From the NCBI GenBank assembly GCA_016937865.1, contig JAFGVS010000016.1:1-51928 (forward strand): a DNA stretch of 51,928 nucleotides, given 5' to 3'. The notes beneath the pieces were generated by a model that saw only the letters and a list, made by a program, of their open reading frames with translations, had not been told where the DNA came from and searched no databases. This DNA is from Alphaproteobacteria bacterium. Its GTDB lineage: Bacteria; Pseudomonadota; Alphaproteobacteria; Rs-D84; NBLK01. Both the position numbers and the translations under genes were made by a program. Numbering within the stretch: the first letter of the stretch is position 1; each line of letters starts with the position of its first letter. Positions 14,282 through 51,928 of this stretch are shown piece after piece.

Positions 14282-14743
14282 TTATTTTGCAACAACAGTG
14301 ATAGAGCGACGGTTCATAGCCCATGCTTCTTCATTGTGTTCTGCAACTTCTGGACGTGTTTCACCGTATGAAACAGTTTTGATGCGTGATGCTTCAACGC
14401 CACGTTCCATTAGGAAGTCTTTAACAGCGTTTGCACGACGTGATCCAAGACCTTGGTTATATGCGTTTGTTCCGCGTTCGTCACAATGACCTTCAACTGT
14501 AACATTCACATCTTTGTACATATTTAACCATTCAGCTTGAACTGATAGTTTGTCTTGTGCTTCTTGTTTTAGATCGTACATGTTGAAGTCAAAATATACT
14601 TTTGCGCCAACACGAGCTGCGAAGTCTTCTGCTGTTCCTGGTGTAACGCCATCAACTGGATCACCTAGAGATGTGCTATCTCCGGCACAAGCTGCTAGCA
14701 TTGCTGACATTGCAACAACAGTAAGAAATTTAAGTGCTTTCAT
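14282..14743 (-). CDS. pal: Peptidoglycan-associated lipoprotein Pal (OmpA family)
   Basis: Lipobox MLAAC. VTVEGHCDERGTNAYNQGLGSRRANAV OmpA-like motif. The ORF-track start 14848 is an upstream extension. ATG 14743 has AAAGGA upstream. Confidence 0.9.
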   Translation of the reverse strand: MKALKFLTVVAMSAMLAACAGDSTSLGDPVDGVTPGTAEDFAARVGAKVYFDFNMYDLKQEAQDKLSVQAEWLNMYKDVNVTVEGHCDERGTNAYNQGLGSRRANAVKDFLMERGVEASRIKTVSYGETRPEVAEHNEEAWAMNRRSITVVAK

Positions 14744-14812
14744 TTTATATCCTTTAATTTTTCCGCAATTCAATCTGCGATTCTTGCCTATTCTACTTGC
14801 TTTTTTTCGGAA

Positions 14813-24376: not shown

Positions 24377-25813
24377 ATGCCACAACATACTTTTACAAAA
24401 ATCTTATCCTCAATTGGTCCTTCAAGTGAAGATCCAAAAGTTTTAGAAAAACTTTTTATGGCTGGTGTAGATGTTTGTCGAATGAACTTTAGTCATGACT
24501 CTCACGAGAATCACGAAAAACGTTATAATAACATTCGCGCCCTTTCAAAAAAATTGAAACGTCCAATTGGAATTCTTGGAGATTTACAAGGTGCAAAACA
24601 TCGTATTGGTCAGTTTGTAGGCGAAAAAGCCAAAATCAAACCGGGACAAAAATTTACTTTTTATTTGAATAAAGTAGAAGGAAATTCAACGCAAGTTACT
24701 TTGCCACATAAAGAAGTTTATGCCTCTGTAAAAAAAGGTACAAAAATTCTTATTGATGATGGACGCATTGGTATGGAAGTTTTAAACGTATCAAAAGATA
24801 TGGTTGAAACAAAAGTTATTTATGGAGAAGAAATCAAAGATAATAAAGGATTTAATATTCCGGATGTTATTTTGGATATGCCTCTTTTAACCGAAAAAGA
24901 TAAAAAAGATCTTAAATTTGCTTTGAAATTAGGTGTTGATTTTGTGGCGGTTTCTTTTGTGCAAACGGTTAAAGATATTTTAGAAGCCAAGAAACTTATT
25001 GGCGGAAAAGCCAAAATTATTGCGAAAATTGAAAAACCTTCTGCGTGTGAAGATTTTGAAGCGATTGCCCGTGAATGTGATGCGATTATGATTGCGCGTG
25101 GGGATTTGGCGATTGAAATTGGTCATGCAAAAGTGCCAGTGATGCAACGTATGATGATTGAAACATGTCGTCGTTTAGGCGTTCCTGTGATTACTGCGAC
25201 AGACGTTTTTGATTCAATGACTAAAAAACCATTGCCAACACGTGCGGAAGTAAACGATTGTGCAACGGCGGTTTATCTTGGGACAGACGCCATTATGACA
25301 TCTGGTGAAACGGCGGCTGGGAATTATCCGGTTGAAACGATTAAAATGATGGCAGATGTTATGGATACTGTTGAAAATGCGCATAATTACCGTTCTCAAC
25401 TTGAACCACGTCATACAGATTTTGTTGAATTTACAACCCCTGAAACATTGGCTCTTTCTGCAACAGATACGGCTGACCTTGTCCAAGCCAAAGCCATTAT
25501 TGTTTTCACACGTTCTGGCAATATGGCACGTCGTGTTTCTGCGTATCGTCCGGAAGTGCCTGTATTGGCAATTACAAAAGATGAACAAGTTGCAAATCAA
25601 CTTTGTCTGTCTTATGGGGTTAAATCTGTGCATATTGGTGTACAGTTTAAAACCGTTAAAGATATGGAAAAAGAAGTGCTTCAACAAGCAAAAGCATTTG
25701 GTTTGAAACGCGGTGATAAAATCGTGATGATTGCGGGTAAAAAACCTGGTGCAACCGATACGGCGGTTTATGAAGAAGGTGGCGCAAACTTTATGACAGT
25801 TGTGACCCTTTAA
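24377..25813 (+). CDS. pyk: Pyruvate kinase
   Basis: KI..SIGPSS......L...G....RMNFSH, MIARGDL..EI and the rest of the core. 478 aa. Confidence 0.95.
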   Translation: MPQHTFTKILSSIGPSSEDPKVLEKLFMAGVDVCRMNFSHDSHENHEKRYNNIRALSKKLKRPIGILGDLQGAKHRIGQFVGEKAKIKPGQKFTFYLNKVEGNSTQVTLPHKEVYASVKKGTKILIDDGRIGMEVLNVSKDMVETKVIYGEEIKDNKGFNIPDVILDMPLLTEKDKKDLKFALKLGVDFVAVSFVQTVKDILEAKKLIGGKAKIIAKIEKPSACEDFEAIARECDAIMIARGDLAIEIGHAKVPVMQRMMIETCRRLGVPVITATDVFDSMTKKPLPTRAEVNDCATAVYLGTDAIMTSGETAAGNYPVETIKMMADVMDTVENAHNYRSQLEPRHTDFVEFTTPETLALSATDTADLVQAKAIIVFTRSGNMARRVSAYRPEVPVLAITKDEQVANQLCLSYGVKSVHIGVQFKTVKDMEKEVLQQAKAFGLKRGDKIVMIAGKKPGATDTAVYEEGGANFMTVVTL

Positions 25814-25825
25814 GTTTATTAAAAA

Positions 25826-25858
25826 TAAAAAAAGAGCTCCCATTTGAGCTCTTTTTTT
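25826..25858 (+). terminator. Rho-independent terminator after pyk (probably bidirectional)
   Basis: aaaaagagctc-ccattt-gagctcttttttt. Confidence 0.75.
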
Positions 25859-25871
25859 GAAATTATGTTTT

Positions 25872-26393
25872 TTAGTAATTTACAGTTACAGTATAACCGG
25901 ATCCATTTTGTGAAGTATATGTTCCAGCTGTCTCATTTCCTGTAAAATCAACTGAACCACCAATGACAAAATTCCCACTTCCTTTTGAATCTAAGGCAAA
26001 GTTTCCAATAGTTTTAACAGACCCTTCTAAAATTGGATCAAATATTAGAGTATTTCCCGATCCATCATCGAGAGTAGCGGTTGATCCCGTTATATCTATG
26101 TTAATTAAGGCTCCCGGAGCCCCAGATATATTCATTCCCCCTGCCTCTGGAAATCCAGAACAAACATAAGAACTGGGACAAGAAACAACTTCATTGTCGG
26201 GATCAATAGAAACAGTTTGAGGGCCTGCGGCAGGATCAATTGCAATTGTTCCCAAATTAATTGGTAAATTTGCGTTAACTGTCAATGGATTTGATAATTC
26301 TGCTTGTGCGTGTCCGGTTCCAGTTGCAGCCATGACGCCTGAACTCAAAACAATACCCATTGTGAATAATGATAGCTTAAATAAATTTTTCAT
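25872..26393 (-). CDS. Secreted DUF4402-like protein
   Basis: Signal peptide ...SSGVMA. G/T/S-rich beta-type sequence ending GTYTSQNGSGYTVTVNY, as remembered for DUF4402 (G.Y.G.F.VTV.Y). Confidence 0.5.
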   Translation of the reverse strand: MKNLFKLSLFTMGIVLSSGVMAATGTGHAQAELSNPLTVNANLPINLGTIAIDPAAGPQTVSIDPDNEVVSCPSSYVCSGFPEAGGMNISGAPGALINIDITGSTATLDDGSGNTLIFDPILEGSVKTIGNFALDSKGSGNFVIGGSVDFTGNETAGTYTSQNGSGYTVTVNY

Positions 26394-30911: not shown

Positions 30912-31223
30912 ATGGATATTAAAAAAAGTTTATTTATTCCGGGCGTTGTTTTTTCAGTTGGATTTCTCATCCTTTTGATGGGGATATTTTTGGATCGAAA
31001 TCTCCAATTTTGGGGGGCTCTCTTAATGATTGGAGGAATAGTTGTTTATTTAGTCAAAGGTTCTAAAATTACTGATTCTAATAAATCAGTTGATGTGGCT
31101 AAATTAAAAGAAGAGTTAAAAAAAGAATTCGAACATGATGCTCTAAAGAAAACAGTCGCAGATCTTGAAAAACAAGTAAAAGATTTGAAAAAAGAAAATG
31201 AAGATTTAAAAAAAATTCCTTAA
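30912..31223 (+). CDS. Hypothetical small membrane protein with a coiled-coil tail
   Basis: Two TM segments followed by KLKEELKKEFEHDALKKTVADLEKQVKDLKKENEDLKK. Confidence 0.5.
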   Translation: MDIKKSLFIPGVVFSVGFLILLMGIFLDRNLQFWGALLMIGGIVVYLVKGSKITDSNKSVDVAKLKEELKKEFEHDALKKTVADLEKQVKDLKKENEDLKKIP

Positions 31224-31230
31224 AAAACAA

Positions 31231-31265
31231 AAAAAAGCTGCAGTCAAAAATGGCAGCTTTTTTTA
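31231..31265. terminator. Bidirectional terminator
   Basis: aaaagctgc...gcagctttttt between convergent genes. Confidence 0.6.
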
Positions 31266-33380
31266 TGGGCAGTCTAGTGTTTGCCATTTTCCTTTTGGTA
31301 GATTATTAAAATAATCAGGATATTCTTTTATCACCGCTTCTATGTCTTGTGTCCGTACGGAATTATTTGTTTCAAATAAATATTTAAACTTGTCTATATC
31401 GATGAGTTGTGTTTTTGGATTTTCTTGTTGTAGAAATAAGTTGTATGCGCCAGTTTCACCCATTTTACTATACATAGAGCTTTTTAAAGTTGTTTTCCAT
31501 TCATCTTTGATCCAATTATCCCAGATTTCTGAAACAGTTGAGGTTGGTGTTTTTATTTCGGTCAATCGAGCCCAAACTTCACTGCTAAATATGCTTTCTA
31601 CCATAGGAGAATCCTGGCAGAACATTTCTATTATATTTCGTTCGGGAAATTTAGAGCTGTCCATATCTGTGAATGTTTCTAGAATTATATTGTTAATATT
31701 ATATCCCCATGCGACACATCCTTCTGCTTCTCCATCTAAGCCACCTAGTTGTCCTGATACAATTTTTTTAATAGTATAACTTACAAACCTGTTTATTTTT
31801 AAAGCACATAAGTCTTTTTCAGCTTGATTAACAACTATGACGTTTTCCTTTTCTTCTTCCTCTTCCTCTTCAGTTTCTGTTTTAGGATCAACACAGAATT
31901 CATCGATCGGTGTTTCTTTTGCTGTCGCTATATCTTCCAATATTTCTGGGTTTAGTTTGGTTTTCCCTTGGCAAAGTGGTTGGCATTTTGGATCACTCGC
32001 CGTTGCATCATATTCCCACCCTATGATGTTTTTGCCTCTCTTTCCGCCTTGTGTGAAGATGTTTGTGCAATTTGTTGCTGCGGTCTCACATTTCTTTTTT
32101 GCTGGATCATCGGCATCAAGCGCAACCCGATCTTCATTACAAATTAGACGGCATGGAGACGCAACGGGCGTCCCGAATATATGGCCAACTATGCTTGCTC
32201 TTCCAAATCCGTTTGGTGGTGCATCAAAGGCAGCACATTCATTTGTTGGTGGGTTTATATTAGGGTATTCAACAACAACTGGTATACAGTTTGTTTTATT
32301 TTCATTTGGTTCAAAGCCTGGTTTACAGTTCGAGATAAAGCAGCCGCCCCATCCATAGGAACTTCCTGCCCGATAATCAAAGGCAACTGCGTTTAGTTTC
32401 GCTTTGGTTAAGCTAGATGGAATAGGGGGAAAGAGTGCCGCTGTGTCGCCTAGGTCGTTATTTGCTTTACAGTTGGTGCCATCATCTTCAAGACACTCAA
32501 GGTCATATTCATCTTTCATATAGCCTTTTGCACATTGTTTAATGTGACAGCCGTTGATGCCGTGTGATGTGTTTGCTTCGTCATACATCCATTCCATGAT
32601 GTGCAAATCTTTGTTGGTGGCGCGCCCTGTATTATGCAAACGGACATAATCGGCAAAATTTGGACCTGCTGTTAATGGGATTTGGGTTGCGCCATTATTT
32701 GCTAAACACTCGGCCTTTAATTTTCCACATTGTTTTGTATCTGGGTCATAATCGTCTGTCCAGGTTGCCGGTTCACATTCACATTTTACTTTGGATTTTT
32801 TTGTTTCATCGACGCAGGTGTCATCTTTTAATTTCCAAGTGAGTTTGCAATCTTGTGGGCCACGGGCTAGACACTCTTCTTTGATTTTAAGATTTTCTTC
32901 GTAAACGTTTTCGCCTTGTGACTTTGTGGCCTCGACTTTGTCGCCGGTGCTTTTTTTGAATCGATCTGCTAATTTTTTGGCTTCGCTGACAGCGGTTTTT
33001 CCATACATAAATCCAAGTCCCATGGAGCCAATAAGTTTTAGATTATTTGTTTTATATTTTTCAACAATGGTTTGAAGCGATAAATAACGATTTTGTTGGC
33101 AGAAATCTGGGAGTAAATCTTGGCAACCTTTCCGGTAATCTTTATCGCGGAAAGATTCACGCGTTAAACGTTCTGTAAAAAAGGTAATACATTGTGGTAC
33201 TTCGTCTAATTGATTTTTTAAATCAGGGTCTTTTGATTCGGTCATCGCGATTTTTGCAATCACGCGTTCACAGTCTTGCGGAGTAACATTACGCAAGTGT
33301 GTCGTGAGGTGTAACGGCAATGCCTGCACACTTATGGATACACTGACCATAATCGATAAAAATAAAAAGAGCCTTCTCAT
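31263..33380 (-). CDS. Secreted cysteine-rich protein (about 705 aa) with repeated C-x3-C modules and an acidic linker
   Basis: Signal peptide MRRLFLFLSIMVSVSISVQA. About 30 Cys counted by eye. Modules include GCHIKQCAKGYMKDEYDLEC and GGCFISNCKPGFEPNENKTNC. An E-run (TETEEEEEEEKE) is present. The ORF-track start 33416 is a TTG. Confidence 0.75.
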   Translation of the reverse strand: MRRLFLFLSIMVSVSISVQALPLHLTTHLRNVTPQDCERVIAKIAMTESKDPDLKNQLDEVPQCITFFTERLTRESFRDKDYRKGCQDLLPDFCQQNRYLSLQTIVEKYKTNNLKLIGSMGLGFMYGKTAVSEAKKLADRFKKSTGDKVEATKSQGENVYEENLKIKEECLARGPQDCKLTWKLKDDTCVDETKKSKVKCECEPATWTDDYDPDTKQCGKLKAECLANNGATQIPLTAGPNFADYVRLHNTGRATNKDLHIMEWMYDEANTSHGINGCHIKQCAKGYMKDEYDLECLEDDGTNCKANNDLGDTAALFPPIPSSLTKAKLNAVAFDYRAGSSYGWGGCFISNCKPGFEPNENKTNCIPVVVEYPNINPPTNECAAFDAPPNGFGRASIVGHIFGTPVASPCRLICNEDRVALDADDPAKKKCETAATNCTNIFTQGGKRGKNIIGWEYDATASDPKCQPLCQGKTKLNPEILEDIATAKETPIDEFCVDPKTETEEEEEEEKENVIVVNQAEKDLCALKINRFVSYTIKKIVSGQLGGLDGEAEGCVAWGYNINNIILETFTDMDSSKFPERNIIEMFCQDSPMVESIFSSEVWARLTEIKTPTSTVSEIWDNWIKDEWKTTLKSSMYSKMGETGAYNLFLQQENPKTQLIDIDKFKYLFETNNSVRTQDIEAVIKEYPDYFNNLPKGKWQTLDCP

Positions 33381-33490
33381 GCGTGTTATTTTAACTGTAA
33401 AAGCAATTGCTTGCAAGTTTTTATTTTAGTGTTGTGTTAATCCCTAAAATATGATACACTTGGGCTAGGTAGAGGAAAGAGAAGAAAACC

Positions 33491-35362
33491 ATGAAATTAA
33501 AAAACTTATTCATTTTCAGTGGCTTAGTTGTCCTTGTTTTCGTTGGTATGACACCAGTTTATGGACGTGTTTCTAGTCGTGCTCAGGGCACACGTTACGC
33601 TGGGTCAGGTAGTTATTCGAGTGATGTTGTTACCCGCAACCAGAATTATGTTGCAACAACAGGGAATACAACAGGCGGTGGTATTGGCGATCCGTTGGGT
33701 GGTCAAGGATGTGATGATGAAGGACTTTGCACGAAGTGTAAACGCCTCGTTGCACAATCTTTGCAGTCGTACTGTCGTGAAAATGAATGTTCAGAAGCAT
33801 CGAATGCTTTTATTATCGCAAAAGCGTTGCCGTTGAGTTCAACCTTGGTGAATATTGATCAAGCTTTGTATGATTCCCCTTCTACGGCGGTTTCAAGTCC
33901 AGTTTTGGCGCAGGGGCAGGGATATGATCAATCCTTGGTTCAAGCGTGTCAGCCTTCTTTGGTTAAACATGTCGAAGAATTCTTGCCAGCTTATTATGAT
34001 ATTGTGACACAAGAATGTCACACACAATATAAAACAGCGATTGATCATTATATGGCTAATAATAAGGGTGGCTTTAAAATGGGGCCTGCTGGGCAAAAGG
34101 GTGCTATTCGAAATTTTGAACTTTTAGAATATTTTAAGCTTCATTCAACACCAGATTATGCAACAAGTCTTTATCAGGATACGACTTCAGAAGATTATTT
34201 CTTTAGTGCGTATTGTATGGCGCAAATGGCAGATTCCGTAAAGCGTTCTTTGATCGATTTGTATTTGCCTGATATGTTCACGTATCAACGTAATATGTGT
34301 CGTCGTTCTTATGAAATGGCTATGCAGAAATATTGTAACGCTGGTGGTGGTATGGGATGCCGTGGGGAAATTGATTATATGACATTGATTATGAATCAAA
34401 GTTTCTTAAATCAAATTCGTTCTGACAACACACAAATTAATTGTGCGACTGAATTATCTCAGGATGTACGTGAAGCTTTGGTTGAAGAAGTGACCCGCAA
34501 GCAAAATATGTGTGCCCGTGAAATGGGACTTTATAATGCGGAAAAAGATATGTGTCAGTTCTCTATTTCTTTGATTGATGCGAAGAATAAAGAAATTGAA
34601 CGTAAACAATATTTTGAAGGCGAAACTGTGAAGTGTAACGAAACTGACTTTATTGATCCATATTCTAAAGAAGGTCGCAAACGTGTTGGTAAAGGATGGT
34701 TGATGTCACAAACCGGGGCGAACATTCTTTATGGAACAGGCGGTGCCGTTCTTGGATCCATGGTTGGTGGTGGCATTGGTGAAAACGTTGCGGAAAAGGC
34801 TAAGTTAAACCAAGTTTTAACGAACAATGGTGTGAGTAATGAAGATTTAGCTTTAGTGCGCAAAAAAGTTGTTGGTTTGAGTGGCGATTATTTGAATGCT
34901 GAAAAAAAACTTGTTGGTTCTGGGAAAATTGAAAAAGACATAGCTCAAAGCATTATAGAAGATCTTTATGATGTTGAAAAAGAGGTTGATGATGATGGCG
35001 TGGCTAATCCAGATAAAACGACTTGGAAAGTTGGTCGTATGCTAATAGGTACAAAAAATGCAAAAACTGTTGGTAAAGTTGTCGGTGCTGTTGCCGGTGT
35101 TGCCGGTGGTGTTGCTGGATCAAAATTTGTATACAAGAAGCTTTATCAAGAAACAAAATGTTATAAAACATGGCGTTTGGCTGCAGAGACTTTAGATGAC
35201 GCTGTTTCTTTAGAAGTGCTTTCGGATACAGATCGTCCATGGGCTGAATGGGGTAGTTCAAAGGCTCTTCCTACCTTAGTTCAAGGTATGCAAGTTGAAA
35301 TCGATTCTTTGTCGGTTTACGACCGTGAGTATCCAGGTGAACCAGAATGGGAAAATAAATAA
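33491..35362 (+). CDS. Secreted cysteine-rich protein with two glycine-zipper segments (623 aa)
   Basis: Signal peptide ending TPVYG, GAGGAAAGAG RBS, about 16 Cys, and the segments GTGGAVLGSMVGGGIG and VGAVAGVAGGVAG. Paralogous to the next gene. Confidence 0.75.
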   Translation: MKLKNLFIFSGLVVLVFVGMTPVYGRVSSRAQGTRYAGSGSYSSDVVTRNQNYVATTGNTTGGGIGDPLGGQGCDDEGLCTKCKRLVAQSLQSYCRENECSEASNAFIIAKALPLSSTLVNIDQALYDSPSTAVSSPVLAQGQGYDQSLVQACQPSLVKHVEEFLPAYYDIVTQECHTQYKTAIDHYMANNKGGFKMGPAGQKGAIRNFELLEYFKLHSTPDYATSLYQDTTSEDYFFSAYCMAQMADSVKRSLIDLYLPDMFTYQRNMCRRSYEMAMQKYCNAGGGMGCRGEIDYMTLIMNQSFLNQIRSDNTQINCATELSQDVREALVEEVTRKQNMCAREMGLYNAEKDMCQFSISLIDAKNKEIERKQYFEGETVKCNETDFIDPYSKEGRKRVGKGWLMSQTGANILYGTGGAVLGSMVGGGIGENVAEKAKLNQVLTNNGVSNEDLALVRKKVVGLSGDYLNAEKKLVGSGKIEKDIAQSIIEDLYDVEKEVDDDGVANPDKTTWKVGRMLIGTKNAKTVGKVVGAVAGVAGGVAGSKFVYKKLYQETKCYKTWRLAAETLDDAVSLEVLSDTDRPWAEWGSSKALPTLVQGMQVEIDSLSVYDREYPGEPEWENK

Positions 35363-35377
35363 TAGGCTGATATAGAT

Positions 35378-36943
35378 ATGAAAAAAATACTCTTTGTTTT
35401 TCTTGGGATTAGTTTACTTGTTGCGAGTGGTGCTTTTGCGGCACGCACCAAGGGGATTGTGAGTCCAAAAATAAAAACGAAAACAATCGAAGTTGAAAAG
35501 ATTGTGAAAGTGCCAGGCCAATCTGTTGTTATTAAAAATGAAGTGAACATGAATGTTGGTGCTTGTGCTGAAGAGTATCGTTATAAAACGGTTTCTTATT
35601 GTGCGGGTCATAATGGCTGTAAAGAAATGAGTTCTATTGAAGCCCTGATGGAAATTGATCCGTTGATTTCTGCGGGATGTCGTGAGCTGGCCTATAATTC
35701 TAAATTGACTGCCATTGAAGATGGGATTGCGGTACATTTACGTTGTTTGAATGCGAATGGTCTTTATGATCTCAATAAAGGCGTTTGTCGTTTTACGGTT
35801 GAATTGCGTCGTGGTAAAAAGGTAAAAGAAACGGCAGAAGTTTGGGAAGATATTGAATATACGTGTGGTAAAGAACTTTTCCCAATGGCGGCCAAAAACC
35901 GTCGTAATGCTATTATTGGTGGTGGTGTGATTGGTGCAGGTGCAGGTGCCGTTGGTGGTGGATTACTGTTTAAAAACGTCTTTGGTGAAAAAAAGATGTT
36001 AAAAGATCTTTTCTCAAAAGATCCATGTAATGTTTCGGATGAAGGGAAACGAAAAGAACTTGTAAAAAAATTACGTAAAGATGAAATCACAGACTATGCT
36101 GCATTTGTTGAATCTTTAAAGACTGCTGGTGTTTCTGATCCAGCCGGTTGTGCAGATAGTTTTTTCCGTCAAAGTTATATTGAAGGGGTTTATTTGAAAG
36201 TTTCAACATATTTTCAACGTATCGAAGATAATATGTTTGCGTTTAAGGAACGTGTATTCTTTGGTGTAAATAAAGATAATCTTGGAAATGAAGCAACAGA
36301 GATATTGGATCAATTGTCTGAAACATTAACTAAAGAAGGGGTTGAAAAGTGTGTGAAAATTTCAGTTTACGGTTATGCTTCTGCACCTGGGACAACAGCA
36401 TTGAATCAAAATTTATCTGAGCGTCGTGCAAAAAAGGTTGCTGGGTATCTTAGAAACAAAGGTTTGACTGTTTCAGAGATTTATCCCGAAGGCGAACAGA
36501 TAAGTCCTACTACAGAATATACTTATAATCGTCGGGCAGACATTGCGTTGGATTTGCCAGCTGGATGTACCCCGAATTCATCAAATGTTAGTGGTGGAAG
36601 TGCTGAATTTGAAGAAGTTGAAGGTAAAGAAGCTACTTCTGAAATTATTCCAATCGATGGACAGAATTTTGTCTTAGACCATGCAAAGTTCCAAACGAAA
36701 GAAAACTTTGCAAAAGGCGCGATGATTGGGGCACCGGTTGGTGGATTGGTTGGTGCCGGACTTGGGGCTTTGTTCACAAAGTATAAATGTTATCTTTCAG
36801 GTACAGATGAGTTGCTTGCGAAATGGAATAAGACTTTTAAGATTTCTCCGCCAGCATCTTTGATCCCGGCTGATTCGATTACCACAGGGACTTCCAGTTC
36901 TTATTCGGCTTCGACATCGATAGAGACGAATGTTACTCAATAA
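35378..36943 (+). CDS. Secreted cysteine-rich glycine-zipper protein with an OmpA-like peptidoglycan-binding domain (521 aa)
   Basis: Signal peptide ...ASGAFA. GGGVIGAGAGAVGGGLLF. OmpA_C-like segment FGVNKDNL...ISVYGYASAPGTTALNQNLSERRAKKVAGYL...NRRADIAL. Second zipper GAPVGGLVGAGLGALF. Confidence 0.75.
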   Translation: MKKILFVFLGISLLVASGAFAARTKGIVSPKIKTKTIEVEKIVKVPGQSVVIKNEVNMNVGACAEEYRYKTVSYCAGHNGCKEMSSIEALMEIDPLISAGCRELAYNSKLTAIEDGIAVHLRCLNANGLYDLNKGVCRFTVELRRGKKVKETAEVWEDIEYTCGKELFPMAAKNRRNAIIGGGVIGAGAGAVGGGLLFKNVFGEKKMLKDLFSKDPCNVSDEGKRKELVKKLRKDEITDYAAFVESLKTAGVSDPAGCADSFFRQSYIEGVYLKVSTYFQRIEDNMFAFKERVFFGVNKDNLGNEATEILDQLSETLTKEGVEKCVKISVYGYASAPGTTALNQNLSERRAKKVAGYLRNKGLTVSEIYPEGEQISPTTEYTYNRRADIALDLPAGCTPNSSNVSGGSAEFEEVEGKEATSEIIPIDGQNFVLDHAKFQTKENFAKGAMIGAPVGGLVGAGLGALFTKYKCYLSGTDELLAKWNKTFKISPPASLIPADSITTGTSSSYSASTSIETNVTQ

Positions 36944-36975
36944 AATTTTCCCCGGTTTTCCGGGGATTTTTTTTG
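36943..36975 (+). terminator. Rho-independent terminator after the island
   Basis: tccccgg-tttt-ccgggga followed by T8. Confidence 0.75.
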
Positions 36976-38124: not shown

Positions 38125-38687
38125 ATGCCCAAAATTCCAAGTCATGCCAAATGTGTTTTTAAAGGGGTTCTGTTTGATGTGTACCAATGGGAACAAATGG
38201 GGTTCGATGGCACAACAACAACTTTCGAGATGTTACGGCGGAAAGCTGGTGTTCAGGTTTTAGCTTTGAACGGAATAGATGTTTATTATTTGGAGGAAGA
38301 ACAACCCTTAAAGGGAAAATATCGCGGGCTTGTTGGCGGTAGTGCAGAAAGTTATGAGGAAGATCCGTTGGATGTGGCCAAACGTGAATTGTTGGAAGAA
38401 ACGGGGATGGTGGCAAAAAATGGATTTTGCTTTCTTCGTCGAATTATGTTCCTAAAACAGATTGGGACTTTTATATGTATGTGGCTTATGGGTGCGAAAA
38501 GATTCAAGAGCCAGCCTTAGATTCATGTGAAAAAATTGAAATTAAAAAAATGCCTTTGGATTTATTTCTTCGCGATATCGCGACCGATCCGAAATTTCAT
38601 TCTTTTGAGTTGCGACGGATGCTCGTTGATACAGATTTAAAAAAGCAAGAAGAGTTGAAACAATGGTTAATGAAAAATTCGATTTAA
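38125..38687 (+). pseudogene. NUDIX hydrolase split by a frameshift at an A6 run
   Basis: ORF 38125..38520 carries the Nudix box (GGSAESYEEDPLDVAKRELLEETG). The natural continuation WILLSSSNYVPKTDWDFYMYVAYG... is in the -1 frame (ORF 38427..38687). The junction is at AAAAAA 38415-38420. Confidence 0.65.
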
Positions 38688-45243: not shown

Positions 45244-45325
45244 GGGAATGTGGCGGAACTGGTAGACGCGCCAGACTCAAAATCTGGTTTCTTCGGAAGT
45301 GGGAGTTCGATTCTCCCCATTCCCA
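45244..45325 (+). tRNA. tRNA-Leu (anticodon CAA)
   Basis: Hand-folded cloverleaf. Acceptor GGGAATG/CATTCCC. D-arm GCG-GAACTGGTAGA-CGC. Anticodon arm CCAGA-CTCAAAA-TCTGG. Long variable arm TTCTTCGGAAG. T-arm GGGAG-TTCGATT-CTCCC. No encoded CCA. Confidence 0.85.
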
Positions 45326-45332
45326 TTTTAAA

Positions 45333-45476
45333 TTCTTCGTTTCTATTGGAAATTAATCTTATGGGTATATATTGCCGTTTCGCGGACATCATTCGACGTA
45401 CCTCATGTACGTCTTCGTCCTAAAACGACAGTATCTTCTCCATAACACTACTACGTTTTAATTTCGTTTTGCTGCA
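45333..45476 (+). repeat. Dispersed structured repeat, copy 5 (subfamily B)
   Basis: Begins 8 nt after the tRNA-Leu. TTGGAAATTAATCTTATGGGTATATATTGCCGTTTCGCGGACATCATTCGACGTACCTCATGTACGTCTTCGTCCTAAAACGAC...TTTTAATTTCGTTTTGCTGC. Confidence 0.85.
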
Positions 45477-45790
45477 AAATCGCGATTTTTAACAAATGTG
45501 TTCTTGCAAACACTTTAGTTTGTCCAAACGGAATCACATCAAAATGGTGATATTCTTTTCCAATCACGTATCGACATACGCGACTGGAAAAATAAATCTG
45601 GTTTCAATGTACCTTTAAACAAAATTATTGAAAAATCTCAACACGTCTTGGGTCCTCGGGTTTTCTAGACGTATTTTTGGGTAAGTTTTTCGTACATTTC
45701 TTTTTTTATGTGTATATATAGTTTTTCTCTTTTTGATTTTTTTGTTTTTTGTGATATCTTCTTCGAAATACTCATTTAAAGGAGACGGAC

Positions 45791-45976
45791 ATGTCTAAGG
45801 AAAAAACAGAAAAGTCAACTGCACAAAAAATAGCAGAATTAAAAATAGAACAGGAAAAATTGTTGCAGGAGAATCCAAATCTTCCTCGATTTCGTGGGGC
45901 TATTGGTCTTGTTCAAAAAGAAACTGAAAAGACTTCTGAGGTTGTTAAAAAACGCAGGAATTTTCGCGCGGTTTAA
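45791..45976 (+). CDS. Hypothetical small basic protein (61 aa)
   Basis: AAAGGAG RBS 6 nt upstream of the ATG. No motif recognised. Confidence 0.4.
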   Translation: MSKEKTEKSTAQKIAELKIEQEKLLQENPNLPRFRGAIGLVQKETEKTSEVVKKRRNFRAV

Positions 45977-47065
45977 GCTTTTTTCATTAGCATTGCATTA
46001 AGGAATTCGTCGAGTTCGCCATCAAGGACCGCTTTGGGGTTAGAGCTTTCCACATTTGAACGTAAATCTTTAACCATTTGGTATGGATGCAAGACATAAG
46101 ATCTGATTTGATTTCCCCAGCCAATTTCGGTTTTATTGGCTTCAGATGCATTTTTTTCGGCCTGTTTTTCCCGCATTTCTTTTTCATATAAACGGCTTTT
46201 TAACATTTTAAAAGCGACTTCTTTATTGCGATGTTGGGAGCGTTCCATTTGGCATTGCACGACAATTTTGGTTGGGATATGGGTAATGCGCACCGCAGAA
46301 TCGGTTGTGTTTACATGTTGTCCACCTGCGCCGGACGCGCGATATGTGTCAATGCGGCAATCGGCCGGGTTAATTTCAATTTCAATGTTTTGATCGATGT
46401 CTGGGTAGACCCAAACAGAGGCAAAGGTCGTATGGCGTTTTGCATTTGAATCAAATGGGGAAATGCGCACCAGTCGGTGTATCCCGCTTTCGTGCTTTAG
46501 CCAACCATACGCGTTTTCACCTTTGATGTGTAAGGTGGTTGATTTTAGGCCGACTTCTTCGCCACTTTGTTCTTCGATGAGTAAAGCGGTATAGCCTTTT
46601 CGTTCGGCATAGCGCATATACATGCGTTGTAACATCAGTGCCCAATCACAGGATTCGGTGCCACCTGCGCCGGCGTGGATTTCGAGGAATGCATCTTCAG
46701 AATCTGCTTCTCCAGACAAAAAGGTTTCGATTTTGGCGTTTTGAAGGTCACTTACAAGTGTATTTGATTCGATATCGAGTTCTTTTAATAGATCTGTTTC
46801 GTTTTCTGTTTCCGCCAGATCACTCATTTCTTTTAGGGTATCGAAACGGTGCTTTAATGTGTTGAAGTTCTCTAGTTTTCGTTCAAGTGCTTTTTTTTCT
46901 TTTAGAACTTTTTGGCTGTTTTTAAGATCTTCCCAAAATTTAGGGGCTTCTGTTTTTTTATGGAGTGATTCAATTTCTGTTTTTAAAGAAATTGGGTCAA
47001 AGAAACCTCCCAAGCTCTGTGATTAGCTTTGAAGATTGGGTTAAATTTGTTTTTAGGTCTGACAT
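45973..47065 (-). CDS. prfB: Peptide chain release factor 2, with a programmed +1 frameshift
   Basis: Frame 0 reads MSDLKTNLTQSSKLITELGRFL from ATG 47065 and ends at CTT TGA C (TGA at 46999-46997), preceded by GGGAGG. The +1 frame continues DPISLKTEIE... through SPF and GGQHVN to 45973. Confidence 0.9.
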
Positions 47066-47163
47066 GTGATGCATGATATTTTATTTTGATATAAAAATCA
47101 ACTTTCTACTTGTTTTTGAAAAAAATACCTTTATTATTAAACGTAAGAGATAAAGGAGATCAC

Positions 47164-47331
47164 ATGAAAAAGTTATTTATTGCCGGGCTGTTAGGCCTTT
47201 TCCTATCAAGCTGTGGTGGCTCTATGTATCATCGAGATCCTGTTGGTGTTGGACATGATAATGCGGAAATGAAACTTTCCCCATGCGCTTGTATTCTTGT
47301 TCCTCAAAACGGTGATCACGTTGTTATATAA
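47164..47331 (+). CDS. Small lipoprotein (55 aa), possibly VirB7-like
   Basis: AAAGGAG RBS. Lipobox FLSSC. Short Cys-containing mature part with VPQN. The ORF-track start 47110 is an upstream extension. Confidence 0.6.
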   Translation: MKKLFIAGLLGLFLSSCGGSMYHRDPVGVGHDNAEMKLSPCACILVPQNGDHVVI

Positions 47332-47529
47332 TCATTCTAAATATATAAGATTTATTTAGCAAAAACGGATAGGAGTACACAGAAGAAAGACTTGATTTTC
47401 TTTTTTATCTTTTTTGTATCTTTTCAGCAATTTTAATTTAGCCATATTTTATATGCCAGAATTAAAATCAACTGACAATTTTTCAAAAAATAAAAAAATA
47501 ACATCAATATCTATTTAGAAAGACTATAT

Positions 47530-48246
47530 ATGATGCTTCCTATTTTTCCTTTTAAGGTTCATTTGAAAAACCGTCCTGCGCGGCGTTCTATTCGATTGCT
47601 TCGATGGATTGCTTTTGTTTTGACGGTTTTATTTACGATTAATGCTCTAATTGGTTTTGGTTTTTTGACTTTGCTTAAACAAAAAGAATTGTCGCCTCGC
47701 TTTGTTTCCTTTGATTCAAAATTGTCTTCTTTTCGTCTATTTTCAGCGGATTCTGTCCCAGGGAAAGTGGTAAAATCTGCCCGTGATGTTTTACGCGAAA
47801 AATTTGTTCGGGATTATGTTTTAAAACGAGAAATGTGGCAGTTGGATATGGCGAATAATCATCACCGATTGTGTGATTGTTTACAAGATGAGCGTGAAAA
47901 AAAATTGATTGAAAAGACACGAAATCGTACGGTTGAGCCACGGTGTAGTGTGTGTTTGATGTCAACGCAGGCTGTTTTTAAAGATTTTTTTGATAAGACG
48001 TATCCTGCTCGGAAAGAACGCTCTAAAGATAATTGGGTTCAATTGCCCTCTATTCGTACGGTTGAACTATACAAAATTATTCCACCGGAACGTGGTAAAG
48101 GGTTAACGTTGATTTATAAAATAGATTATGAAATCGAAGATCAATTGTGGCAGGCTTATGTTAGTGTGCGGGATCTTTTGAAACCGGATGAGTATCTTTT
48201 TCAGGTTGTGGATTACGGGATATTACCTTCTCCTTCTGAAAAATAA
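47530..48246 (+). CDS. Bitopic membrane protein, possibly VirB8/NTF2-like
   Basis: Short cytoplasmic N-terminus and one TM (WIAFVLTVLFTINALIGFGFLTL). Periplasmic domain with KELSPRFVSFD..., EKFVRDYVLKREMW and a C-terminal FQVVDYG. Confidence 0.55.
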   Translation: MMLPIFPFKVHLKNRPARRSIRLLRWIAFVLTVLFTINALIGFGFLTLLKQKELSPRFVSFDSKLSSFRLFSADSVPGKVVKSARDVLREKFVRDYVLKREMWQLDMANNHHRLCDCLQDEREKKLIEKTRNRTVEPRCSVCLMSTQAVFKDFFDKTYPARKERSKDNWVQLPSIRTVELYKIIPPERGKGLTLIYKIDYEIEDQLWQAYVSVRDLLKPDEYLFQVVDYGILPSPSEK

Positions 48247-48271
48247 AAATGGAATAAAAAAGAAAGATATT

Positions 48272-48934
48272 ATGAGTCGTTTATGGACCTTTTTATTTTC
48301 GCTGGTTGCACTTAGTGGGGTGCTTGTTTCCCTGTTTTTTGCGTATGGTATTTTTAAAGCTTTGTGGTTTGGGGATTATTATAGTTTGGTGCCGGCCTTT
48401 TTAAAACAAGATACGACGATTCAAGCGGTTTATCCTTCTAGCCCATCTTATATGACAAAAGCGCAAAAAAAACTTTTAGTTTCCCATTTAATAGAAGATT
48501 ATTTGGTCTATCGTTATACGATTTTACCAGATGATGATTTAATGGCACAACGTATGGGACAATGGTGGAGTGAACACAAGTCTCCTATTGATGCGCCGTA
48601 CGCGATTTGGGTTTCCCCCAATGAAAATGGTTCTGTTTGGCGGGGTTTTATTGATCCTGCGGGTGGGTTTGCGCCACGTGTTTTGCAATTGGTCAAAGAA
48701 GGAAAAACGCGCACGGTTGAAATTCTAAGTTCGCCTTATAAAGAGAAAGATTTCTGGAATGTGCGTTTAAAGCTTTATACATATGCGCCGGATACCGATC
48801 GTGTGACAATTTCTTATTTGAAAATTCAAATGGCGGTTTCTTTGGGGGATTTTATGCGCTCTTTTTCTGTCGCACAACTGAACCCGGCGCTGCTGTATAC
48901 GTTTAAAGTTGACTCTTTTAGAGAAGTCTATTAA
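48272..48934 (+). CDS. Bitopic membrane protein, paralogue-like partner of 47530..48246
   Basis: ATG 48272 (MSRLWTFLFSLVALSGVLVSLFF). HLIEDYLVYRYTI and a C-terminal LNPALLYTFKVDSFRE. The ORF track starts upstream at 48188, inside the previous gene. Confidence 0.55.
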   Translation: MSRLWTFLFSLVALSGVLVSLFFAYGIFKALWFGDYYSLVPAFLKQDTTIQAVYPSSPSYMTKAQKKLLVSHLIEDYLVYRYTILPDDDLMAQRMGQWWSEHKSPIDAPYAIWVSPNENGSVWRGFIDPAGGFAPRVLQLVKEGKTRTVEILSSPYKEKDFWNVRLKLYTYAPDTDRVTISYLKIQMAVSLGDFMRSFSVAQLNPALLYTFKVDSFREVY

Positions 48935-50097
48935 CGGTAAAGCGTATATCCCATTGTTTTTAATTTTACCAAAGGTAAGTAACCTGTGTTTTCTGGTACC
49001 GTTTTATATTCAATTTGTCCGTTTATATCCGTTAATAAGCTATGATCACTGAGGGCAATGTACTCCCCTTGGCTTTCTTGTGCTTTTAAGATCAATCCCT
49101 CTCCTGCGATGTGTTTCGATTTAAAATACGTCGTTGAATTATACGCAATATCCTGAAAAGCACTCATATGTGTATAGGGTAATACTTCGATTCCGTGTGG
49201 TACGGTTAGTTGTAAGCTTGTCCATGTATTTGGATTTGTCGTTGTATTTAGATCTTCTTGTTCGGTCGTATAAAAAATATCTAATTTCTCGCTTTTCCCT
49301 TTCATGATAAAAGGAATAATATTCGAATTTGTATCCGTTAAAACGGATCCAATGTATCTGTGTTTGCTGTAACTCCCAGAAACATTTAATAGATTTGTTG
49401 CATTTAAATCGGTGTCGAATCCGGCATCGATTTGTTTTGTTGTTGGATCACATAAAATAAACACATGATAGGTGGTTGAAGGTTGAGCTGTTAATGGGGC
49501 GGGCATGCCTCCTGTGTCAGACCCAGCCACCCAGGTTGCGTCTAATTTTTTTGTTAGTGCGCTGGATAATATCATGGAGGTTGTTTTGTCAGCGCTTTTC
49601 GCTTCGCCAGGGCTTACCGTAATATCATGATCTGCGTCTGTACTAAGTGATAATGTTAGCGCATTAATATAGCCGTTTGGCAATCCTTCAATTGAAGAAA
49701 GGGATGCTTTTAGTGTGGCGGGTGTGATGGCTTTCGATGTTTCGATGCCGGCTTGGGCTTCGGAAGTTGTGGCCAATTGAAGTACGCCTTTTTTGACTTC
49801 CGTTGCAATGGCCGTTGTCACTAGATTTGATAAATCGGTTTTTGCGATTCCACGTGCGGCAATATCTTCGCTGGCAATATTTGTCATGTCGGCGAGGGCA
49901 AGGCCGCGGGTTGCAAAGTTGGCGTCGGATACGTTGGATAGATCTTCACGGGCGAGCGGATATCCACCGGCTTTGGTGCCATCGTGGACTCGCACTGTTT
50001 CTTTATCTGTATCGACGGTAATTTCGCCTTCTAGACCTGTGAAAATGGCATGTTCCGAAGTTGTGCCGCGGCGCCATTGGACTGATTTTGTTGTCAT
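48931..50097 (-). CDS. Phage tail-fibre-like protein
   Basis: The N-terminus VQWRRGTTSEHAIFTGLEGEITVDTDKETVRVHDGTKAGGYPLA is a tail-fibre/Mtd_N-like motif. Also GVLQLATTSEAQAGIETSKAITPATL. AAGGA RBS. Confidence 0.65.
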   Translation of the reverse strand: MTTKSVQWRRGTTSEHAIFTGLEGEITVDTDKETVRVHDGTKAGGYPLAREDLSNVSDANFATRGLALADMTNIASEDIAARGIAKTDLSNLVTTAIATEVKKGVLQLATTSEAQAGIETSKAITPATLKASLSSIEGLPNGYINALTLSLSTDADHDITVSPGEAKSADKTTSMILSSALTKKLDATWVAGSDTGGMPAPLTAQPSTTYHVFILCDPTTKQIDAGFDTDLNATNLLNVSGSYSKHRYIGSVLTDTNSNIIPFIMKGKSEKLDIFYTTEQEDLNTTTNPNTWTSLQLTVPHGIEVLPYTHMSAFQDIAYNSTTYFKSKHIAGEGLILKAQESQGEYIALSDHSLLTDINGQIEYKTVPENTGYLPLVKLKTMGYTLYR

Positions 50098-50238
50098 TGT
50101 TTTATTCCTTCTTTTTTGTTTGTTTTATTTTTGGAGATAAAAAAAGGGCGCAAATGGCCCGTTGATTTTCTTTAGGTAGAGACTTTTTTATCGAAATCAA
50201 GTCTTTTCTATTTTTTTATTAAATAAGTTCTGTTTTGT

Positions 50239-50267
50239 TTGACTTGCCTTGATTCAAAACCTATCCT
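50239..50267 (+). promoter_or_regulatory. Putative promoter for the NMO-family gene
   Basis: TTGACT, 17 nt spacer, TATCCT. Confidence 0.4.
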
Positions 50268-50321
50268 TATGTGGAAATCGAATCCTCCTTAAAGGGATAT
50301 TTGAAAATAGAAAGGATAAAT

Positions 50322-51713
50322 GTGCAATTTAATCTTCCAAAGATTTTTTATGGTGGTAAAGAAGTTGAAGCAATTATAGAAGGCGGAAAAGGTATTAACG
50401 TTTCTACCGGCTTGACGGCTGGGCGATTTGCAGCCTGTGGCGCCATCGGGACATTTTCAGGTGTTAACCCGGATGCTCGTGATGAAAATGGGAATTTAAT
50501 TGAACGTGTTTTTCAAGGTAAAACGCGCCAAGAGCGTCAGAAAGAATTGGTTGATCATGCCATTAAAGGTGCTTTGACTCAGGCGAAGATTGCGCACGTG
50601 GAATCCAAGGGACAGGGTCGGATATTTATGAATGTTCTTTGGGAAATGGGCGCTTGTGTCGATATTTTAGAAGGTGTTCTTTCTAAGGCAAAAGGCCTGA
50701 TTCATGGGATTACTTGTGGTGCCGGCATGCCATATCAATTGGCGGAAATTGCCGCGAAATATACGACTTATTACAATCCAATCGTTTCTTCTGCACGTGC
50801 TTTTAAAATTTTATGGAAGCGTTCTTATGAAAAAAATAAAGAATGGTTGGGCGCGGTTGTTTATGAAGATCCTTGGAAAGCCGGTGGACATAATGGTTTG
50901 TCTAATGCTGAAAATCCAAAAGAACCACAACGTGCGTATGAACGCCTGGTTGAATTACGTACTTTTATGAATGAAGTTGGCTTGAAGGCTATTCCTATTA
51001 TTATTGCCGGAAGTGTATGGTGTTTATCTGAATGGGTGTCTGTGATTAATAATCCACAAATTGGTCCGGTTGTATTTCAATTTGGAACACGTCCTTTGGT
51101 AACCCAAGAAAGTCCGATTACAGAGGATCACAAGCAATATTTGTTTTCGTTAACGGAAGGCGATGTTTCTTTGCAACAATTCTCACCAACTGGGTTTTAT
51201 TCTTCTGCTGCTCGGAATGATTTTTTGAAAATGTTAGAACAGCGTTCTGCGCGTCAAGTGCCTTTTTCAATGGAACCTAAAGATGATTTGACGGCACAGG
51301 TTGCGCTTAATGGTCAAACTATTTTTGTTTCAGAGGCGGATCGTGAAAAAATTGCTGGATTTATCAAAGATGGGTTTGATGTTGCGATGAAAACGCCTGA
51401 TTCAACCGTTGTTTTTGCCTCTTCCGAAGAAGCAAAAACGTTACGTCAGGATATGCGTGATTGTGTTGGTTGTTTATCTGTTTGCCAGTTTTCCGGATGG
51501 AGCCAATATGAAGGCGTTAATCCACAGGCAGATCCACGGTCGTTTTGTATTCAAAAAACATTGATGGATATTTCACATGGTGGAAAAGTCCAAGATAATT
51601 TGATTTTTGCGGGGCAAATCGCTTCTCGTTTTGGGACGGATCCTTTTTATGAGGGTGGAAAAAAGATTCCAACGATTGCAGAATTGGTCGCCAAAATCAA
51701 AACAGGCGCATAA
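50322..51713 (+). CDS. Nitronate monooxygenase (NMO) family FMN-dependent oxidoreductase
   Basis: GGKGINVSTG..., ITCGAGMP, and DPWKAGGHNG. The ORF-track GTG at 50271 sits at the predicted transcription start. GTG 50322 has AAAGGA 5 nt upstream. Confidence 0.75.
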   Translation: MQFNLPKIFYGGKEVEAIIEGGKGINVSTGLTAGRFAACGAIGTFSGVNPDARDENGNLIERVFQGKTRQERQKELVDHAIKGALTQAKIAHVESKGQGRIFMNVLWEMGACVDILEGVLSKAKGLIHGITCGAGMPYQLAEIAAKYTTYYNPIVSSARAFKILWKRSYEKNKEWLGAVVYEDPWKAGGHNGLSNAENPKEPQRAYERLVELRTFMNEVGLKAIPIIIAGSVWCLSEWVSVINNPQIGPVVFQFGTRPLVTQESPITEDHKQYLFSLTEGDVSLQQFSPTGFYSSAARNDFLKMLEQRSARQVPFSMEPKDDLTAQVALNGQTIFVSEADREKIAGFIKDGFDVAMKTPDSTVVFASSEEAKTLRQDMRDCVGCLSVCQFSGWSQYEGVNPQADPRSFCIQKTLMDISHGGKVQDNLIFAGQIASRFGTDPFYEGGKKIPTIAELVAKIKTGA

Positions 51714-51734
51714 AACCTTGTTATTATCTTTAAA

Positions 51735-51760
51735 GAAAAGCCTTTTTCAGGCTTTTTTTT
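51735..51760 (+). terminator. Rho-independent terminator
   Basis: aaaagcct-ttttc-aggctttt followed by a T-run. Confidence 0.7.
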
Positions 51761-51787
51761 ATGTTAAAATTATGCTATACTCTTTTC

Positions 51788-51928
51788 ATGAAGAGAATTC
51801 TTATCCTTTTTTTCGTAGCGATGCCGGGTGTGCTTTTTGCGCAGATTGATCCGATGATGATTCAACAAGGGATTGGGACCGTTATCGGCCTTAAAAATAA
51901 AGTGGGTGAAATAAAGTCGAAAACAAGC
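51788..51928 (+). CDS. 5' part of a secreted protein gene running off the right edge
   Basis: MKRILILFFVAMPGVLFAQ signal peptide. The frame is open to the window end. Confidence 0.4.
   Translation, partial: MKRILILFFVAMPGVLFAQIDPMMIQQGIGTVIGLKNKVGEIKSKTS

Follow-up and report, generated by a model that had tools for sequence, protein, structure and literature searches.

Do neighboring genes for cysteine-rich exported proteins form a single envelope system, or do genes of separate history merely lie side by side? The question is raised by a locus in a 51,928-nucleotide stretch of alphaproteobacterial DNA (hereafter the window; contig JAFGVS010000016.1 of assembly GCA_016937865.1, positions 1 to 51,928), in which a minus-strand gene, here called A, diverges from a plus-strand pair, B and C. 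An original prediction, made from the letters alone, had taken the three as one island encoding a disulfide-stabilized complex. Here, we report that B and C are the conserved unit of the locus, that they are built on a common scaffold, and that A does not belong to this unit. Coordinates of all features are collected in Table 1.

Genes B and C form a conserved operon

Five close homologs of B, with 54-67% identity, were found on related contigs (the loci of which are numbered L001 to L094). At each of these five loci (L001, L003, L004, L010 and L012) the B homolog is followed by a C ortholog after a spacer of 6-64 nt; in the window the spacer measures 15 nt (35363-35377). The genes flanking the pair, on the other hand, differ at each locus and include unknown genes, gatB, glyA together with a helix-turn-helix regulator, and lpxC. 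The real unit is the B-C operon, a conserved pair, and the part of the original prediction that saw in B and C a lineage-restricted operon of Sec-exported, cysteine-rich envelope proteins, one of them carrying an OmpA-like module, is borne out by the retention of the pair in all five close relatives.

A putative promoter motif, TTGT(G/T)T-N14-TGA-TA(C/T)A(C/G/A)T, is found upstream of B in the window, at the same five loci and at the distant locus L008; in the window it is followed downstream by a purine-rich ribosome-binding site at approximately 33474-33484. Together with the candidate promoter of gene A, this suggests that the 110-bp region between the divergent genes A and B (33381-33490) contains two independent promoters, one for B-C and one for A. 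Among the B-type proteins, the most distant one is P0015 (756 aa), encoded at positions 10001-12271 of L008, between enolase and secA on the 455-kb contig JAVBPW010000001.1.

Gene A is an unrelated neighbor

Homologs of A lie behind the pyruvate kinase gene (L007), between unknown genes (L005) or directly upstream of sufB (L093 and L094). Gene A of the window is likewise located upstream of sufB, with only a small opposite-strand open reading frame (ORF) in between. In assemblies GCA_054385435.1 and GCA_029935615.1, A and B-C are on separate contigs and have different neighbors, and in none of the relatives examined does A adjoin B-C. Profile-profile comparison detects no relationship of A with either B or C, and homology between them was therefore rejected. 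Because A homologs occur in other contexts and A shares no homology with B or C, the juxtaposition of A and B-C is local to the genome of the window. Gene A also diverges rapidly, with about 40% identity over a distance at which SufB retains 83% and the cysteine-rich base of B 80%. Gene A is an unrelated neighbor of the B-C operon, and the three-gene island of the original prediction therefore does not hold.

The product of A consists of a conserved N-terminal region of about 300 aa, four repeats, an acidic linker and a variable C-terminal part. Each repeat combines a β-hairpin with the pattern C-x3-4-C-x2-G[YF]-xn-C, and the N-terminal region contains an EGF-like spacing, C-x7-C-x10-C-x10-C-x-C-x15-C. 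No match to A was obtained in sequence searches of Pfam, NCBIfam and the PDB. The profiles closest to the EGF type, cEGF (E = 0.61) and CPL1-like (E = 0.045), remain far under their cutoffs, so that the EGF likeness appears to be limited to cysteine spacing only.

Since orthologs open with MRR..., the start of gene A was placed at ATG 33380. At each of the four A loci whose upstream sequence is long enough (the window, L005, L007 and L093), a -10 hexamer precedes the ATG by 6-8 nt, and a TTGCAx -35 element 17 nt further upstream is clear in all of these except L005. Outside the window, the sites are located at about 2600-2645 in L007, 965-1012 in L093 and 8330-8378 in L005. No Shine-Dalgarno sequence is visible before gene A. 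The short distance of only 6-8 nt between the -10 hexamer and the ATG suggests that gene A and its orthologs are translated from leaderless mRNA.

B and C share a common scaffold

Using hhalign, residues 269-488 of B align with residues 59-257 of C (E = 2.7e-4, 195 columns), with seven cysteines in register. In a joint MAFFT alignment of eight proteins, the columns invariant in both families comprise this 7-Cys module, an F-P...R linker, both glycine zippers and, in the tail, K-C and T-D...W...K..P (that is, K, C, TD, W, K and P). A hidden Markov model (HMM) of six C proteins matches P0015 over the entire scaffold (E = 8e-7). When 2044 ORFs were searched with the C-family HMM, the B family scored next-best outside the C family, apart from the Pal-like OmpA protein of the window, which is matched over its OmpA region only. 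On these alignments, B and C are paralogs.

A common order of elements can be recognized in seven B-type and six C-type proteins: signal peptide, 7-Cys module, zipper 1, insert, zipper 2 and a tail marked by K-C-[YW] ('KCY'). B and C thus both fall within the scaffold family as defined in this analysis. The base of B extends the shared module by an extra N-terminal cysteine-rich part to a total of 15 cysteines, and the spacing from C270 to C382 of B equals that of the C module. Evidence for a duplication inside the N-terminal half of B is limited to one weak, non-significant hint, a C-x11-C-x4-7-C helix (E = 0.024). The tail of B is conserved as ETKCY...TDR..EW...DSL..YDREY.G.P.WE.K. Sequence searches of Pfam, NCBIfam and the PDB returned no match for B.

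GxxxG-type runs are found at residues 415-434 and 520-544 of B and at residues 178-195 and 447-464 of C; they are kept in the orthologs, and zipper 1 of B aligns with zipper 1 of C. Summed on the Hessa scale, the zippers reach +3.5 to +6.2 kcal/mol versus -1.4 to +3.0 kcal/mol for the signal peptides. Given these sums, the zippers should pass SecYEG rather than stop in the inner membrane.

What lies between the zippers differs by member: a helical stretch of about 90 aa in B, a helical linker plus an OmpA-like domain in C, and an unrecognized domain of about 250 aa with four cysteines in P0015. The B ortholog of L004 (P0005) moreover carries a 145-aa Ser/Gly/Thr-rich insertion within its insert.

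Conserved base, hypervariable insert and cysteine parity

To compare the parts of the scaffold, identity was computed region by region over all ortholog pairs. The insert of B is 16-48% identical between orthologs, versus 66-93% for the cysteine-rich domain. L004 and L012 are the closest pair: their scaffolds share about 93% identity (cysteine domains, zippers and tails 81-96%), while identity drops to 48% in the B insert and 46% in the OmpA-like core of C. The latter core also contains an indel and shows a raised rate of synonymous substitution (dS 1.2 versus about 0.5), consistent with replacement of a cassette or with rapid divergence. The window and L010 share 80% identity in the cysteine-rich domain of B, a value close to the 83% that SufB shows between the window and L094 (closely related to L010), indicating housekeeping-level constraint on the base. 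When a base under housekeeping-like constraint carries so variable an insert, this is usually the mark of a surface that is exposed or that tracks a partner.

The distribution of cysteines follows the same division. Across the 13 B and C proteins, the base has 15 or 7 cysteines (odd in 12 proteins, 8 in the remaining one) and the tail always has one, whereas the number in the insert is always even (0, 0, 0, 4, 0, 2 and 4 in B-type proteins; 4, 4, 6, 4, 4 and 6 in C-type proteins). The simplest reading is that insert cysteines were gained as disulfide pairs and, therefore, that the inserts reside in an oxidizing compartment. The parity further suggests that the odd cysteine of the base pairs with that of the tail, which would draw the two zippers together; an intermolecular bridge between B and C is the alternative.

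The OmpA-like domain of C lacks a canonical ligand-binding residue

C matches the OmpA family PF00691 at 47.0 bits (cutoff 27.2) over residues 294-372, the only Pfam domain found in the three products, as the original prediction had anticipated. Of the C orthologs, L010 scores 56 bits and L012 30 bits, and L003 gives no match. Sequence searches of the PDB with the domain retrieved OmpA, YfiB, Pal and YiaD. In the AlphaFold2 model of C, the OmpA-like part has a predicted local distance difference test (pLDDT) score of 70-88, and all Foldseek matches in the PDB at E ≤ 1e-3 are OmpA-like (PA0833, YfiB, Pal, YiaD, OmpA and MotB). Both the profile matches and the predicted fold identify residues 286-395 as a bona fide OmpA-like domain.

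In Acinetobacter baumannii OmpA, Asp271 together with Arg286 binds diaminopimelate (DAP) (PMC5974059). C retains the arginine, as invariant Arg350 within an NxxLSxRRA motif, and N343, L346 and R350 of the OmpA-like fold are conserved as in periplasmic peptidoglycan binders. The position equivalent to Asp271, however, is occupied by Ser335 in six out of six C orthologs, so the Asp-Arg pair is incomplete. The change is specific to C, since the Pal-like lipoprotein encoded in the same window keeps the canonical motif. Because Ser335 replaces the aspartate and the domain is hypervariable, conventional peptidoglycan anchoring is uncertain. Anchoring to peptidoglycan, as suggested by the original prediction, is not a safe inference, also because the domain is the fastest-evolving part of C. 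The insert of C would probably contact the cell wall, or a glycan related to it, in a non-canonical manner.

A model for the B-C pair and its alternatives

Taken together, these features and the analogy with the SlyB/YfgH/YiaD group lead us to propose, with about even confidence for and against, that B and C are exported, oxidatively folded proteins that assemble through their glycine zippers into an outer-membrane-associated hetero-oligomer. According to this model, both proteins would cross the inner membrane fully, their zippers being too glycine-rich for stop-transfer, and would fold in the oxidizing periplasm. The base would be a disulfide-rich domain of helices and β-strands, onto which the tail would be locked back through a disulfide. 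Within each protein, and between B and C, the zippers would pack as a helical bundle on the outer membrane in the manner of the two-transmembrane (2TM) zippers of SlyB, YfgH and YiaD. In the resulting hetero-oligomer, the conserved base would touch a conserved envelope partner and the variable inserts would project from the opposite end of the bundle.

Several observations weigh against this model. Glycine-zipper matches in Pfam fall under the gathering thresholds: C scores 19.3 versus 25 bits for PF13488 (Gly-zipper_Omp) and 12.3 versus 24.2 bits for PF05433 (Rick_17kDa_Anti), over only the second half of each model, with weak zipper matches at residues 445-466, and B matches neither family. 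Structure prediction was of little help, as the AlphaFold2 model of B (6-sequence alignment) has a pLDDT of 47.8 and is unusable, that of C (joint 8-sequence alignment of C and B) has a pLDDT of 49.8 and is credible only in its OmpA-like part, and the zipper segments do not exceed 50 in either. B and C are not lipoproteins, unlike every characterized outer-membrane glycine-zipper protein. The gene for P0015, which has the same promoter motif, has no adjacent C partner, and an extra cysteine in the C ortholog of L003 breaks the parity. In the closest pair, the OmpA-like domain evolves about nine times faster than the base at nonsynonymous sites (dN 0.51 versus 0.06), which is unusual for a housekeeping peptidoglycan anchor; the same domain lacks the DAP-binding aspartate, which the Pal of the window keeps. 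Finally, a membrane-spanning zipper hairpin would put base and insert on opposite sides of the outer membrane, an arrangement that a fully periplasmic model leaves unexplained.

It is this last possibility that a surface-display alternative takes as its starting point. Here the assembly would be the same, but the zipper hairpin would span the outer membrane from the periplasm as in SlyB, base and tail remaining periplasmic and the inserts, including the OmpA-like domain of C, being exposed as a variable binding or antigenic module. In SlyB-type proteins, the loop of the hairpin faces outward. That only the inserts of B and C are hypervariable, also where the scaffolds are nearly the same, would be expected on this account, as would the Ser/Gly/Thr-rich insertion in B of L004, the cassette-like indel and raised dS of the OmpA-like core, the absence of the canonical aspartate and the cysteine parity, which sets base and tail on one side. 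Surface display in fact explains the hypervariability and the lost aspartate better than the periplasmic hetero-oligomer does. Yet it would require a novel export route, as none is known by which a domain of 90-250 aa could cross the outer membrane inside a helical hairpin. Moreover, N343, L346 and R350 are kept as in periplasmic peptidoglycan binders, and relaxed constraint could equally give fast evolution. We therefore consider surface display, the main alternative, unlikely.

Somewhat bolder, and rather improbable in our view, is the idea that B and C represent an undescribed class of α-helical outer-membrane proteins, in which a split zipper hairpin crosses the membrane, a periplasmic disulfide-locked base clamps its ends and a swappable domain is carried on the surface. 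C would display an OmpA-like domain, B a helical or Ser/Gly/Thr-rich one and P0015 its unrecognized 250-aa domain. If true, this would amount to a modular surface-display scaffold needing neither a β-barrel nor a lipid anchor.

That A, B and C together form a peptidoglycan-anchored, disulfide-stabilized host-interaction complex of an intracellular bacterium, as originally predicted, is very unlikely. The three genes are adjacent and divergent in the window, their products are all cysteine-rich and Sec-exported, and the A and B-C families are found in one narrow lineage, for instance in the two assemblies mentioned above. However, in those shared assemblies A is found on separate contigs among other neighbors, it is never adjacent to B-C in relatives, its recurrent neighbor is sufB, and it has no homology to B or C and evolves much faster than SufB and the B base. 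There is also no sign of an intracellular lifestyle in the window.

An inner-membrane topology, with the zippers as two true transmembrane helices, base and tail in the periplasm and the insert in the cytoplasm, is extremely unlikely. Kyte-Doolittle peaks of 1.65-1.69 for the zippers of C are borderline for transmembrane segments, and the cysteine parity would again set base and tail on one side, but the Hessa sums oppose Sec-mediated integration, a cytoplasmic OmpA-like domain would be without ligand, and the even insert cysteines (0, 2, 4 or 6) suggest disulfides, hence an oxidizing compartment. A role as membrane-damaging glycine-zipper toxins or contact-dependent inhibition proteins resembling Cdz proteins or bacteriocins is hardly credible: glycine zippers are known from pore-forming toxins (compare a glycine-zipper effector of a type VII secretion system, PMC12955049) and weak Pfam matches to bacteriocin, microcin and glycine-zipper models were obtained, but B and C are large proteins using the Sec pathway, with a base conserved at housekeeping level and an OmpA-like domain, immunity, transporter and secretion-system genes are linked at none of the seven loci, and no relatives were found on viral contigs.

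Layout of the locus

The gene coordinates and lengths, the 15-nt spacer and the 110-bp divergent region given by the original prediction were all reproduced, and its cysteine counts, made by eye, proved exact: A has 30 cysteines (4.3%), B 16 (2.6%) and C 12 (2.3%), compared with a median of about 1.3% for window ORFs of at least 200 aa. The Sec-type signal peptides proposed for all three products can likewise be seen in the N-terminal sequences, each with a basic n-region that is followed by a hydrophobic core and by a cleavage site of the small-x-small type (VQA↓L, VYG↓R and AFA↓A for the three proteins). As a lipobox cysteine is absent in all, they look like substrates of signal peptidase I.

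The locus is bracketed by strong terminators, as had been claimed, both hairpins folding significantly better than shuffled sequence. The hairpin at 31233-31262, which was read from the sequence and is not listed by the consensus terminator scan, folds at -14.1 (plus strand) and -13.2 kcal/mol (minus strand) with z about -3.4, and none of 200 shuffles is as good. The one after C was found by the scan (hairpin 36949-36966, -14.9 kcal/mol, z = -3.8) and reads as a terminator on the minus strand too. Downstream of C, mraY starts at 37041, and murF and murE are not found upstream, which makes the location at a breakpoint of the division and cell wall (dcw) cluster a fair description. Horizontal transfer of the A-B-C region was considered and receives no support from composition, its G+C content not being atypical of the window.

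Table 1. Position of genes, putative signals and protein segments in the window
Feature	Position (nt or aa)	Strand	Remarks
Pal-like lipoprotein	14282-14848	-	lipobox LAAC, GHCDERG...RRA; ~20 kb upstream
Putative bidirectional terminator	31233-31262		A-run/GCTGC stem/T-run; between ORF 30912-31223 (+) and 3' end of gene A
Gene A	ORF 31263-33416; coding sequence 31263-33380	-	705 aa from ATG 33380
Candidate promoter of A	33388-33416	-	TTGCAA, 17 nt, TAAAAT, 7 nt to ATG; scan match 9/12
Putative B-C operon promoter	33432-33460	+	-35 TTGTGT (33432-33437), 14 nt, extended -10 TGA-TACACT (33452-33460)
Gene B	33491-35362	+	623 aa
B predicted signal peptide	aa 1-25	+	VYG↓R, read from sequence
B invariant unstructured motif	aa 35-56	+	RY.G..SYSS.V.T.NQNYVAT
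B Cys-rich domain	aa 74-382	+	15 invariant Cys; last 7 form the module common to C
B glycine zipper 1	34715-34783	+	aa 409-431, GANILYGTGGAVLGSMVGGGIGE; small-xxx-small runs, hydropathy peak
B insert	34784-35056	+	aa 432-522; helical, hypervariable, no conserved Cys
B zipper 2 and tail	35057-35359	+	zipper aa 523-547; single tail Cys557
Gene C	35378-36943	+	521 aa
C predicted signal peptide	aa 1-21	+	N-terminus MKKILFVFLGISLLVASGAFA↓ARTKG
C β-strand-like segment	aa 35-58	+	
C 7-Cys module	35558-35893	+	aa 61-172; C63, C75, C81, C101, C123, C137, C163
C glycine zipper 1	35903-35974	+	aa 176-199, RNAIIGGGVIGAGAGAVGGGLLFK
C OmpA-like domain	36233-36562	+	aa 286-395, within insert; motif GYASAPG...NQNLSERRA
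C zipper 2 and tail	36710-36850	+	zipper aa 445-467; tail TKYKCY.SGTD..LAKW.K.F.I.P, single Cys471
Putative intrinsic terminator after C	36949-36975	+	7-bp stem, 6 G-C pairs, then T-run

Further features of the window and related loci were noted. In one sub-lineage, C is followed by a gene for a small lipoprotein (L004, 6014-6529, plus strand; L012, 3949-4368, plus strand) whose sequence contains a lipobox (...SIAGC) and ends in an OmpA-like stretch (...NLSRRIEIYLEY). This gene may represent a third member of the operon, which the window lacks. Between mraY and murD, a NUDIX hydrolase gene appears split into overlapping plus-strand ORFs (38125-38520 and 38427-38687), which breaks the usual mraY-murD adjacency; a frameshift, a pseudogene or an assembly error may be the cause. 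The only ORF that is richer in cysteine than A, B and C (25214-25843, minus strand, 209 aa, 9.6% Cys) is found in antisense orientation within the gene for pyruvate kinase (24377-25813) and is almost certainly a spurious artifact.

Other genes in the window include those for a Sel1-repeat protein (7949-8599, minus strand) and a DUF4402 protein (25872-26393, minus strand), both of types that are often secreted or surface-associated. A 388-aa protein (48931-50097, minus strand) has an N-terminal Mtd_N domain (E = 7.7e-14), named for the major tropism determinant of the Bordetella phage diversity-generating retroelement; its upstream neighbors (47530-48246 and 48188-48934) have no Pfam match. A retroelement of this type near the Mtd_N gene was rejected, since no template/variable direct repeat of at least 40 nt was found in 45300-51928.

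Distribution and lineage

When 1.84 billion cluster representatives were searched exhaustively with a HMMER profile, only two clusters were obtained for B, P0015 being the sole addition. A word-indexed search of 5.8 billion clusters yielded six clusters each for B and A (five each besides their own) and one besides its own for C. Scanning GTDB genomes, JGI metagenomes and IMG/VR with the B, A or C profiles revealed no relatives, the sole match being one unrelated viral OmpA-like domain. To date, the B/C family is known from only about seven lineages of metagenome-assembled genomes (MAGs), all from uncultured alphaproteobacteria.

GyrB is at most 61% identical to that of any GTDB species representative, which places the organism in a deep, poorly sampled alphaproteobacterial lineage. 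As the window encodes BamD, MurJ, AsmA, Pal, MraY and MurD, both an outer membrane and peptidoglycan must exist. Neither this ordinary diderm envelope toolkit nor the distance of GyrB from GTDB representatives supports the intracellular lifestyle assumed earlier.

Comparison with known envelope systems

In concept, B-C recalls the cysteine-rich outer-membrane complex that OmcA and OmcB form with MOMP in chlamydiae, a likeness that does not go beyond exported, cysteine-rich proteins of a restricted lineage. No sequence similarity to this system emerged in the Pfam, NCBIfam, cluster or PDB searches. In contrast to the chlamydial case, the organism of the window has a peptidoglycan synthesis toolkit, and the cysteine parity of B and C points to intramolecular structural disulfides, not to a cross-linked lattice.

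Closer counterparts are found among the outer-membrane glycine-zipper lipoproteins SlyB, YfgH, OsmB and YiaD, the last of which has an OmpA C-terminal domain (bioRxiv 10.64898/2025.12.22.696046). With SlyB, YfgH, OsmB and the Rickettsia 17-kDa antigen, B-C shares export and GxxxG-type zippers, along with the weak matches to Gly-zipper_Omp and Rick_17kDa_Anti, and an oligomeric role in stabilizing the outer membrane is plausible by analogy with the SlyB group. B and C differ from this group in that their helices are parted by an insert of 90-250 aa instead of a tight turn, and in having large cysteine-rich domains.

Escherichia coli YiaD (NCBIfam NF053611) resembles C in being an exported envelope protein with a glycine zipper followed by an OmpA-like domain. 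C aligns with NF053611 in two stretches (E = 1.7e-18, 67.1 bits versus a cutoff of 175, so that the likeness is to parts and not to the whole protein) and matches the YiaD structure 2k1s by sequence and fold. The earlier description of the products as members of no recognizable family is incomplete, as B and C each have two glycine-zipper segments and C shows this partial likeness to YiaD. Unlike YiaD, C has no lipobox, its first cysteine being residue 63; it has an extra N-terminal 7-Cys module and the conserved KCY tail, its zipper is split, with one helix before and one after the OmpA-like domain, a serine takes the place of the DAP-binding aspartate, and its gene is paired with that of B, a paralog without an OmpA-like domain. 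Compared with the domains of OmpA, Pal and YfiB, that of C is set between two zippers and is hypervariable among close relatives, and the aspartate of their (H/Y)TD motif is an invariant serine.

The B/C scaffold is a combination of known envelope modules with a novel cysteine-rich base, and the degree to which its conserved base and hypervariable insert differ is unusual. Its practical impact is modest for now, with a family limited to about seven MAG lineages. Should the hetero-oligomer model hold, modules that in enterobacteria are known only from small lipoproteins (SlyB, YfgH and YiaD) would have become a paired, disulfide-locked scaffold with an exchangeable domain. C would then illustrate what an OmpA-like domain does after loss of the DAP-binding aspartate, and B-C would provide a natural case for how glycine-zipper helices associate with the outer membrane.

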